Below are positions 12,001-14,879 of a stretch of DNA of 14,879 bases, piece by piece. The stretch comes from a virus (Duplodnaviria; Heunggongvirae; Uroviricota; Caudoviricetes): the IMG/VR virus record IMGVR_UViG_2667527789_000019, one strand, 5' to 3'. The position numbers were made by a program. Numbering within the stretch: the stretch's first letter is position 1; each line of letters starts with the position of its first letter.

Positions 12001-14879
12001 GAGTATCCATAGGCTATCGTTCCGTCATTCTGTTATTCACCACAGCGCTAAAAACGCCATGAAGGAGCAGAATACCGATTGCCTCGTTTGCTGTATGAGG
12101 TGCTTACCACACATTGGGTACACAGATGAATCAGGCGGAAGTGTGATTACCGGAAAAAATCCATTTCAGTTTGAGGGAAAAAAAACCGTAGTGCGATAAC
12201 ACTACGGCATGCCACCAAAGAAACACAACAAGAGGTCAACAATGAGTAATGGACATGACCAGACGATTTTATCATGCCGGAACAAAAGTTATGTGACACA
12301 GTCGGATAAAAACAGGTAAAGCCCACCAGCTTCATAGGGGATAACCGGAAAAATTCCGGTAAATATTTGCCTGAGTAAGTCATCAAGCGCCTGCTAAATG
12401 TGTATAGAAATGTGTATAGGATTGATTTTAGAACATGTGGAAATGGCTTTATTACTGGTGGCATGGCTTGTTGTTCTGTTCCCTTCGCCGCTCCATGACA
12501 CTTCTTAAAGTCTACTAACTTACTGAATCCTAAGGGATACGGCTTAACGCCTTCCGATAGTTTTACTCACTGTAACCAACACTGTGACTAACTTTGTTGA
12601 AGTAGTGAGCAGACCTAAGGTCTCAGTACATGCTCAAGTCAAGAACCTACCTTTATCAGCGTAATGGTGTCTTTTACATCCGTCTTAGGATGAAGACCAC
12701 TAGTCGCCTGACCGCTTCGCTTCCTTCTCACAACCGTTATAAACTAGCGTCAGTATCTTTACGGACCAAGGATAGACGTACCGCTATGGCTCACTCACGG
12801 CACATCAAGTCAGCACTTAAAGCAATCCATGCAGACAACCCTAACGCCTCTTATGAGGAGCTACGGGAGCACCTGAAGACCATTGTCGAGTGGGAACTTA
12901 GTGTCAGCCGTGATGACCTGAACGACCCGGAGTCCTACCAGCTTTACGTTGACCAGTACGATGACATTAAGTCCAACCTTCGGGAAGCTGTAGCGACCGA
13001 GCGTCTGACTGTAGACCAGCATCGCTATATTAATGACGTTATCGGTGTGCTTAAGGCCTGTCAGGATAGACTCAATGGCGATAGCTCTGGCCTATTGTCT
13101 TACCTTGAGCCTGAGACTGGCAGTCTAAGACCGTCCGTCTCCCTATCTGTATTGGCAGAACCTGAAGTCCCTGAACCTAAAGCACTGACCCTCGCGTCTC
13201 TCATTGAGCAGTACGAGCAGGAGAACGCCCAGAACTGGAAGCCAGCGACCCTAAGCGAAAACCGAGCGTCACACTCTACGCTAATCGAGATATTCGACTA
13301 TCTGGATATTCAGGATGTCGGCAAGGCGACCCGTGCAGATATGCTCAGAGTTCGTGAAGTCCTCCAGCAGCTACCGAAGAACCGCAAGCAACGCTTTAAG
13401 TCTATGCCGCTGTCTGACTTGCTGAACCGGGAGTCTAAGACTGACTGTCTGGACGTCGTTACCATTAACAATAAATATCTTATCAAGATGGCTGCTGTGT
13501 TTAAGTGGGCGGTACGCAACGACTTGATAGCTAAGAACCTGACCGAAGGTCTTGAGCTGAAAGTCCCTCAGCGTAAAGCCTCCGACGCTCGTGATGCGTT
13601 CAGTCCTGAGCAGGTAGGGCAACTACTGGTCGCAGCTAAAGCGTACTCGCAGAAGACCTCAGGTAAGCCATACCATTATTACGTCACCGCTCTGGCTGCG
13701 ATTACAGGTGCGAGACTTAACGAGGTGGCCCAACTTCAGGTTAAAGATGTCAGGACCACTGAGGCTGGGACCGTTTTTATCCATATCAACGAAGACGATA
13801 GCAGCCTGCCGGGTAAGAGTATCAAGAACGCCCACAGTGACCGCTGTGTCCCGTTGGTAGATGGTGCTTATGGTTTTGTATTGGCTGACTTTATGTCACT
13901 CGTGGAAGACCGTAGAAAGACTGAGGGTGATAATGCTATGGTGTTCAATGGCCTCAAGCTAATGAAGAACGGCTACGGTGAGCAGGTTAGCAAGTGGTTT
14001 AACCGAACGTTGCTGCCCAAAGTCCTCGCTGACCGTAGCGGCTTAGCTTTTCACTCGTTTAGACATACAGTTGCGACCCAGTTAAAACAACATGGGGTCG
14101 AGTTAGCGTATGCTCAGGCGATTATGGGTCATAGCTCAGGGTCTATAACTTACGACCGTTACGCGAAAGAGGTCGAGGTGGAAACGCTGAAAGAAAAATT
14201 AGCGGAGTCATTGTCAGTAAAAAAATAGACGGAAAGTAATCGCATAGGGATAGCGGAACGTGAGGACGTAATGGTCAAAGAATTTTTAGTTAGCAAAGAA
14301 AATAAGCCTTCATATGAATGTATGAATACTGCTGAAACTTGTTTGGGGCTGGCTGGAATGGCTTCGGAAGATTGGCAACGTGAGCATCATTGCCGCACAG
14401 GTATAATATTTACTGCTTTTGCTATTGAGGCAATGTTCATCTTCTATAGAAAACAGGTTGACCCCGGCTACGATAAGACGCAGAAAGAGTGCAGAAAGAC
14501 AATGCACAAGAATACGTTAAAGTTGTGCGGTATAAACAATTATATGGGGACAAAACCTTACCAAATTATCAAAGAGTGTCTTGAGGTAAGAGACGCTATT
14601 GCTCACGGCGATTCGTATACTTCGAGCTTTAATTTCTCGGCGGATCATTTGGATAACCAAGACGATATTGCAAAAAGTGTCCTGGCGGTAAACTCTGAAC
14701 AATTTCGGGGATTAACTGTTGAGCGCCTTGCAAAATACATTGAAATGGCAAAGCATATTGACCATGAGATTTCTGATAATGGTTACAGGCCTTCTGAAGG
14801 TTACCTTCCAGCAGCCGAGCGCAGAAGTCTGATGTTAGCTTTTGGCGTCAGTGGTGTGTCAATGTGGCCCAGTGCTTGA

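Follow-up and report, generated by a model that had tools for sequence, protein, structure and literature searches.

The right end of the window, by which we mean the whole 14,879-nucleotide (nt) stretch of a Caudoviricetes virus record analysed here (IMG/VR, IMGVR_UViG_2667527789_000019), raises the question of what is carried by a mobile element whose integrase is directly followed by a gene for a 202-amino-acid (aa) protein of no annotated function. An earlier note, made from the sequence alone, had regarded this gene as acquired cargo with a HEPN-like Rx4H motif and as a possible defence or addiction module. Our answer is that the 202-aa protein is probably a new single-gene phage-defence toxin, judging by analogy with known solo HEPN proteins. 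The gene, its family, the invariant residues of that family, a predicted HEPN fold, the swap of its cassette with that of the defence gene RAZR and the lack of a conserved partner gene are established here. The features involved are the following (window positions; A2 is the family alignment described below).

12630..14228, + strand: 532-aa tyrosine recombinase, the second integrase of the window (PF00589 at residues 325-513, E 1.5e-18)
14262..14266, + strand: Shine-Dalgarno-like GAGGA, 4 nt 5' of the ATG of the 202-aa gene, as read from the sequence
14271..14879, + strand: gene of the 202-aa HEPN-fold candidate, WP_000237836.1, 'hypothetical protein' in RefSeq
14427..14429, + strand: codon of E53, an acidic residue in predicted helix 2 (residues 34-63), invariant in 35/35 sequences (A2)
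14589..14606, + strand: Rx4H codons R107-D-A-I-A-H112, at the C-terminal end of predicted helix 3 (residues 95-111)

Sequence, family and motif of the 202-aa protein

The stop codon of the integrase gene (14226-14228) and the ATG at 14271 are separated by 42 bp, as the earlier note had it, and the AT-rich composition of the gene was likewise confirmed, the 202-aa open reading frame (ORF) having a GC content of 0.42 (0.40 at third codon positions) in surroundings of about 0.50. No sigma-70-like site was found by a consensus scan of the + strand upstream of the gene, which is for this reason probably co-transcribed with the integrase gene.

Close relatives of the protein form 28 clusters in Enterobacterales, and 39 representatives of the family were found among 1.84 billion proteins. 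A profile search retrieved 95 proteins, reaching Pseudomonas, Halomonas, Desulfovibrio and a Dehalococcoidia metagenome-assembled genome, all of them annotated as 'hypothetical' and none with a Pfam domain. The family is present in 20 of the 5,426 complete E. coli genomes, ten of which have an exact copy (100% identical), and an intact copy, also 100% identical, occurs in an Enterobacter record. No match to the protein was obtained in 50,697 phage records (tblastn).

The motif EVRDAIAHGD corresponds to residues 105-114, with R107 encoded at nt 14589-14591 and H112 at nt 14604-14606. In alignment A2, comprising 35 family members with identity down to 15%, the only invariant columns are F50, E53, R107 and H112, while A49, A111 and G113 are at least 90% conserved, giving the family signature FAxEA ... 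R[DN]xxAHG[KD]. A bare R-x4-H in a 200-residue protein has, by a rough estimate, an expectation of about 1 in 4 and is not beyond chance; it is the invariance across the family, together with a location demanded by the HEPN fold, that makes the motif meaningful here. Past the HEPN core the protein continues for about 70 C-terminal residues, with a conserved SEQFR stretch and an AFGVSGxSxW tail, and this part may be a candidate for sensing or oligomerisation. CxxC pairs are absent from the 202-aa sequence.

Predicted HEPN fold

The AlphaFold model of the 202-aa protein, built on a 24-sequence alignment, is all-alpha (pLDDT 78, pTM 0.75). In HEPN domains the Rx4-6H motif is located where helix 3 ends and the loop to helix 4 begins, helix 2 may contain a conserved acidic residue, and inserts between helices 2 and 3 are common (PMC3710099). 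The model agrees with all three rules, having E53 in helix 34-63, an insert helix at residues 75-85 and R107...H112 closing helix 95-111. When the model was searched with Foldseek, HepT toxins ranked first, with a probability of up to 0.99. A member-by-member Pfam scan of the family (n=35) gave matches to HEPN_RiboL-PSP in 10 members, HEPN_MAE_28990 in 4 and HEPN_Cthe2314 in 2, the best with E 2e-4 and all below the cut-off. The earlier proposal that EVRDAIAHGD is a HEPN Rx4H motif is thus supported by the invariance of R107, H112 and E53, by repeated sub-threshold matches to three HEPN families and by the predicted fold. On the model, a HEPN fold of the 202-aa protein, its core being a predicted bundle of four helices, is well supported and very probable, and its catalytic competence is likely.

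A cassette slot shared with RAZR

The gene lies in a segment that is exchanged as a unit between islets (L001, L018 and the like denote the loci compared; L001 continues beyond the window).

14183..14879, continuing 12 nt past the window end, + strand: swappable cargo cassette, comprising the final ~45 nt of the integrase gene, the spacer of 42 bp and the gene of the 202-aa protein

As determined by blastn, L001 22184-22891 (708 bp) replaces L018 10736-11445 (710 bp) between flanks that are 95-96% identical, the homology ending at L001 22183 (window 14182) and resuming at L001 22892, which equals L018 11446. A DNA match to the integrase region was found in 416 of the 5,426 complete E. coli genomes, ten of them with the exact 202-aa gene downstream, and most of the 416 matches stop at window ~14183-14189, within the last 45 nt of the integrase gene. 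In the common form of the element the integrase, 96% identical, is followed by a gene that overlaps the integrase stop codon and encodes a 219-aa DUF4145 protein. This 219-aa protein matches the PADLOC model PD-T7-4 with E 1.3e-102 and has the zinc-ribbon cysteines, AGN68-70, R146 and H154 as in RAZR, an HEPN RNase whose role in abortive infection has been validated and which assembles around the portal or recombinase rings of phages (PMC13017515). RAZR DNA was present in 180 of the 5,426 genomes.

The integrase family occurs in 27 species-level genomes, in which the slot holds a RAZR-like gene in 12 and a member of the 202-aa family in 4, the rest having Rha/Bro-like, lipoprotein or unknown genes. 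Only the Kluyvera copy among these four 202-aa-family genes is intact; two of the others are truncated and the third is split. The sequences suggest that the slot behind the recombinase is one for a single defence gene, RAZR in most strains and the 202-aa HEPN candidate in this one, and this exchange supports the earlier proposal of acquired cargo that could be a defence module.

As an observation apart, an unrelated Rha/Bro-like slot gene (L031 3770-4312) ends in the C-terminal tail of RAZR (...IFQSMPEGPRKGIE...), which looks like a recombination scar at the right boundary of the cassette.

Genomic contexts and the search for a partner gene

At the inspected loci of all 20 E. coli carriers, the family gene stands 0-160 bp behind an integrase of this same family. 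A homologue with 54% identity to the 202-aa protein follows an integrase with 32% identity, with an AbiP2 reverse transcriptase nearby. Other members are found in different settings: as cargo of an integrative and conjugative element (ICE) with TIR, HEPN_LA2681 and CdiI-like genes; in an Enterobacter defence island with AbiC, a protein kinase, Abi_C, DUF5677 and SIR2; alone on a ~5.6-kb Klebsiella plasmid; next to Abi_2 on a Salmonella plasmid; in a Pseudomonas island with MazG-like, SLFN-type helicase and BrxR genes; next to a NERD gene in Halomonas; and in a Desulfovibrio conjugative element with another HEPN gene and ArdC. Long spacers precede the family gene in the Klebsiella and Salmonella plasmid copies.

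Across 12 independent contexts no neighbouring gene recurred, the neighbours being non-homologous, and the downstream genes of similar size in Pseudomonas and Halomonas were not homologous to each other either. A nucleotidyltransferase (NTase/MNT) domain was found in the neighbouring genes of no context. The search for a conserved partner gene of the 202-aa protein thus gave none, the genes on either side being different ones in each of these contexts. The partners that had been thought possible past the window edge did not appear: none is conserved, and the rest of a ~6.4-kb islet, with phage-type promoters, lies there instead.

Proposed function and alternatives

The reading we favour, and consider fairly probable, is that the 202-aa protein is a solo HEPN RNase acting as a phage-activated, single-gene defence effector and sensor. 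RNase activity, activation by phage and a defence phenotype would all follow from the analogy with the solo HEPN defence proteins RAZR and HepS, on which the mechanism proposed here is also modelled. The protein would be made constitutively, likely from the integrase transcript, and would rest as an inactive oligomer that is harmless and antitoxin-free. A phage protein provided by the infection would then join two Rx4H motifs into a composite active site, and the active enzyme would cut tRNA, rRNA or mRNA, so that the infection is aborted. HepS, for its part, works without a partner; its tetramer is inactive, with R and H buried and apart from each other, until a tail-tip protein activates it to cut tRNA anticodon loops (PMC13043305). 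By this analogy, HepS would be the best mechanistic template for the 202-aa protein, while RAZR is the precedent for the slot itself.

Several observations weigh against this reading. HEPN folds exist in non-catalytic proteins too. The best Pfam match of the 202-aa query, HEPN_RiboL-PSP over the motif, has E 0.021 and 15 bits against a cut-off of 28, no curated hidden Markov model (HMM) matched the protein at threshold (NCBIfam none, PHROG no assignment), and PADLOC returned one weak non-HEPN match only (E 0.011). Sequence profile searches of the PDB with family alignments A1 and A2 retrieved noise and no HEPN protein. The E-values of the Foldseek matches are only 0.07-0.3, and the model is uncertain at both termini and at residues 114-125, the loop directly after the motif. 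Comparison of the 202-aa family with RAZR by hhalign gave a probability of 0.4%, that is, no relation. Family copies are truncated or split in L020, L021 and L041, which indicates that the gene is dispensable.

A role of the protein in the life cycle of the islet, either in satellite interference with a T7-like helper phage or as a co-factor of the integrase, would agree with the position of the family gene 0-160 bp behind the integrase at every inspected E. coli locus, with the pairing of the 32%-identical integrase and the 54%-identical homologue, and with the cognate T7-group promoters that directly follow the slot (see below). We nevertheless consider it unlikely, since integrase-free family members reside on an ICE, on plasmids and in defence islands, and the interchangeability of the slot content with RAZR, lipoprotein and Rha/Bro-like genes argues against a function in recombination.

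Equally doubtful is that the 202-aa protein is an addiction toxin stabilising the islet, with an unrecognised antitoxin, either a small protein or an RNA, nearby. Such an antitoxin would be expected close to the gene, and neither an adjacent MNT nucleotidyltransferase nor a recurrent neighbour was seen in the 12 contexts. A conserved non-coding stretch does follow the gene; however, it stands behind RAZR too (96% identity) and so belongs to the islet and not to the 202-aa gene. On the ~5.6-kb Klebsiella plasmid and on Salmonella plasmids, moreover, the family gene is solitary behind its long spacers.

That the protein is a non-catalytic HEPN fold or a decaying, functionless ORF is very improbable: the truncated or split copies, the rarity of the family (20/5,426) and the lack of an HMM match at threshold would fit, but the putative catalytic residues are strictly kept in Enterobacterales, Pseudomonas, Halomonas, Desulfovibrio and the Dehalococcoidia genome while the rest drifts to 15-25% identity, and the intact copy is 100% identical in 10 E. 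coli genomes and an Enterobacter record.

A separate integrative islet at glyU

The last 2.9 kb of the window are 100% identical to E. coli FHI_NMBU_11 (NZ_CP045712), and the full window differs from that chromosome at 7 positions. A tRNA-Gly(CCC) gene, glyU, lies 125 nt upstream of window position 1. Window 1-12478 is occupied by a P4-like island, whose genes include those for an integrase, a DUF927 primase, SSB and a Q-like antiterminator, and three copies of the tRNA-Gly(CCC) 3' end (L001 7860-7877, window 12479-12495 and L001 26895-26912) bound two tandem elements at glyU.

12479..12495, + strand: degenerate tRNA-Gly(CCC) 3'-end copy (TTCCCTTCGCC-GCTCCA, 1 base deleted), the middle copy, being attR of island 1 and attL of islet 2
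12496..12629, + strand: islet left end and integrase leader, identical to the post-tRNA-Gly segment in NZ_CP034787 (L002) and conserved in L048
L001 24907-25398: 163-aa islet protein, orphan, conserved
L001 25482-26471: 329-aa islet protein, orphan, conserved

In strains free of island 1 the intact tRNA-Gly directly joins the sequence from window 12496 on. A perfect 18-nt repeat copy, TCCCTTCGCCCGCTCCAA, at L001 26895-26912, ~4 kb past the window, ends the islet and stands just ahead of a glucoamylase gene, a gene that marks one end of the ETT2 type III secretion cluster (PMC2808357). Since the tRNA abuts window 12496 where island 1 is absent, and copies of the tRNA 3' end are present at both islet ends, the second integrase heads a separate ~6.4-kb integrative islet at glyU, between the P4-like island and ETT2, of which window 12479-14879 is the left third. 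Of the earlier alternative of recent cargo or a nested element, cargo behind the second integrase stood; nesting is ruled out, because three glyU elements are arranged in tandem with tRNA 3'-end copies between them. It is also ruled out that the integrase is part of the ETT2 island, as the islet ends at the 18-nt repeat, ahead of the ETT2 glucoamylase gene, and is found at other sites too.

The same islet type is inserted in ynfE/F with a 15-nt flanking repeat (L047 4319-4333 and 11069-11083), and a third insertion site is bounded by TAGTTCAGATTGAACT (at the ends of L127), the flanking direct repeats outside glyU being of 15-16 nt. The occurrence at these two further sites, with their own flanking repeats, identifies the islet as a mobile unit, and since each site has its own 15-16-nt direct repeat, differing integrase variants use differing attachment sites. 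Contigs of 6.4-6.8 kb were considered as excised islet circles, and this was not supported, as one is a normal piece of chromosome and the ends of the other do not overlap.

The genes of the ~6.4-kb islet are the integrase, the 202-aa gene, a Rha/Ant-like gene, two small ORFs, the 163-aa gene and the 329-aa gene. The 163-aa and 329-aa proteins had no match in Pfam, PHROG, PDB or phage searches. None of the relatives of the 329-aa protein falls below 70% identity; the AlphaFold model of this protein (pLDDT 42) was too poor for a fold search.

One record deserves separate mention: L049 (NZ_CP126871, Enterobacter hormaechei pEh5_2), of 58.7 kb and typed as a plasmid, carries lysS, idi and actS together with an islet that has the 100% identical 202-aa gene, with an ISSen4 element inside the integrase region. 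The record may represent a piece of chromosome that was wrongly assigned, or else a recent capture.

The second integrase

The 532-aa recombinase is composed of an N-terminal DUF6538-like segment (a sub-threshold match in Pfam), a helical region, a core-binding region and the catalytic domain (residues 325-513), and it matches PHROG 1 integrase with E 4e-45. R362, H475, R478, H501 and Y511 are invariant in alignment A3, so that the R...HxxR...H...Y feature is present. The first integrase (ORF 1-1254, RefSeq start at 40) has the Arm-DNA-bind_3, Phage_int_M and Phage_integrase domains and is of P4 type. By BLASTP only ~100 residues of the two proteins align, around the catalytic HxxR box, and their assignment to different lineages, one P4-type and one matched in its catalytic domain only, is confirmed.

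Two other properties that the earlier note had attributed to the second integrase held in part. Its codon adaptation index (CAI; reference set of 13 flanking core genes) is 0.60, the lowest in the window and below the 0.65-0.82 of the core genes, with overuse of CTA (16% of Leu codons, 4% in the core) and AGA (22% of Arg codons, 3% in the core). The GC content of 0.498 is, however, host-like, and the deviation in codon usage is moderate and not unique, as the genes of the first island (CAI 0.63-0.70) are likewise below the core. As to the long N-terminal extension, 324 residues do precede the catalytic domain; they are no add-on but a conserved trait of the family, being kept over their full length in a 498-aa homologue with 32% identity.

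Phage-type promoters downstream of the slot

Directly after the cargo gene, beyond the window end, the islet has sites resembling the promoters of T7-group phage RNA polymerases (RNAPs).

L001 22895, 15 nt past the window end, + strand: T7-group-type promoter, ATACACCTCACTATAGAGG
L001 22923, + strand: T7-group-type promoter, CTTAACTATCACTATAGGGGAGAG
L001 23485, ~605 nt past the window end, + strand: T7-group-type promoter, CTAAAATATCACTATAGGAATG

Besides the stretches in L001 (22895-22932, 15-52 nt past the window end, and 23485-23494), such promoters are present in L018-L049 and L127. The fetched islets contain 60 of these sites (48 unique), each on the + strand, that is, the strand of the integrase and cargo, the first cluster directly following the cargo gene and a second one often located ~550 nt on. 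The islets carry one to four perfect T7-, T3- or K11-type promoters that are matched to the host genus and point into orphan genes. The promoter consensus sequences served as the comparison standard: the L048 site TAATACGACTCACTATAGGGAGA is identical at 23/23 positions to the T7 consensus, and the Klebsiella pneumoniae islet L029 has AATTAGGGCACACTATAGGGAGA, 23/23 identical to the K11 consensus, twice, in addition to a T7-type site. Sites in Citrobacter and E. coli islets resemble the T3 promoter, and a Proteus islet has AATTAACCCACACTATAGGGAGA.

The variant of the window strain, AACTATCACTATAGGG, repeats on one strand in 39-40-kb IMG/VR contigs, with up to three copies per fetched stretch, several of the stretches coming from the same contig. 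These contigs encode a T7-type single-subunit RNAP (PF00940, E 2.5e-106) and a T7 nozzle protein, and its recurrence there identifies AACTATCACTATAGGG as the working promoter of a clade of T7-like phages.

Between the promoter clusters lies a ~560-nt non-coding spacer (L001 22929-23490), 90-96% identical between islets, which folds better than shuffled sequence (z = -3.2). No Rfam match was found in the islet or the spacer. The spacer could be an RNA driven by the phage RNAP or an origin-like region.

Our literature searches found no description of an islet with phage-RNAP promoters after a defence slot. That the promoters are functional and that the islet responds to or exploits T7-like phages is a tentative suggestion from the sequence, which we hold to be possible. 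The polymerase of the phage itself could in that case switch the islet on, with a satellite-like cycle, replication priming or an induced defence as the outcome. Replication priming from tandem promoters is likened to the primary origin of T7. If the islet is wired to virulent T7-like phages in this manner, it would be an element of a new kind, and the integrase-proximal slot would be a swappable anti-T7 module, occupied by RAZR or by the 202-aa HEPN protein. The promoters leave our verdict on the 202-aa protein unchanged and make the slot look like an anti-T7 module; as a feature they could be considerably more novel than the protein itself. If true, the islets would be chromosomal elements that read the RNA polymerase of an invading phage as a signal of infection, which is directly testable.

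Comparison with known systems

By predicted fold and motif, the 202-aa protein would be a member of the HEPN superfamily belonging to no curated family (Pfam, NCBIfam and PADLOC have no model for it), with a gene organisation most like those of HepS and RAZR.

With RAZR/PD-T7-4 (ring-activated zinc-finger RNase), an abortive-infection RNase activated by phage ring proteins (PMC13017515, PMC9519451), it shares the format of a single-gene HEPN protein of ~200-220 aa without partner, the slot, the integrase (96%) and the glyU islet. The two differ in that RAZR has an N-terminal Cys4 zinc ribbon and a C-terminal DUF4145, whereas the 202-aa protein has neither and gives no PD-T7-4 match. The spacing R146...H154 of RAZR stands against Rx4H in the 202-aa protein, and the RAZR gene overlaps the integrase stop while the 202-aa gene is 42 bp away.

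HepS, the 'HEPN solo' abortive-infection protein of prophage Gifsy-1, likewise stands alone; it is similar in size, has an Rx4H motif (R100-H105) and no antitoxin, and is non-toxic at rest (PMC13043305). There is, however, no sequence homology between the two, and HepS (PDB 9oik) was not recovered by the A1 and A2 profile searches of PDB sequences, at E up to 10. From HepT/MntA the 202-aa family differs in that an MNT gene is adjacent in no context, and the 202-aa protein in its ~70 extra C-terminal residues, including the ...G-x-S-x-W tail.

The islet, rather than the protein, resembles PICMIs and other minimalist satellites of virulent phages in being a small integrase-bearing island of ~6-7 kb with few genes, and its T7-group promoters suggest a link with virulent phages (PMC10803314). 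It differs in that no homology of its genes to those of known satellites or phages could be detected, and that phage-RNAP promoters are, as far as the literature was searched, no described feature of PICMI.

Single-protein HEPN defences such as RAZR and HepS have been shown recently to combine sensing and killing in one small protein, and each new family has so far led to a new phage trigger. RAZR and the 202-aa gene offer a clean testable pair, with two different HEPN proteins in the same islet and promoter context between flanks that are 95-96% identical, and the home of RAZR is recognised as a defined mobile islet of 6-7 kb with a cassette slot.

Further observations on the P4-like island

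A 461-aa ORF at window 2066-3451 is probably no gene, as RefSeq has only short genes there (YlcI/YnfO-like, Icd-like and small hypotheticals), and its Rha-domain likeness is limited to the first ~95 residues. Just 3' of the DUF927 primase gene, at window 6408-6480, three 21-nt iterons (TGGGACNACA...) have an origin-like look, and a cluster of 12-nt AAAAATGCGCAA repeats is present at window 9429-9593.

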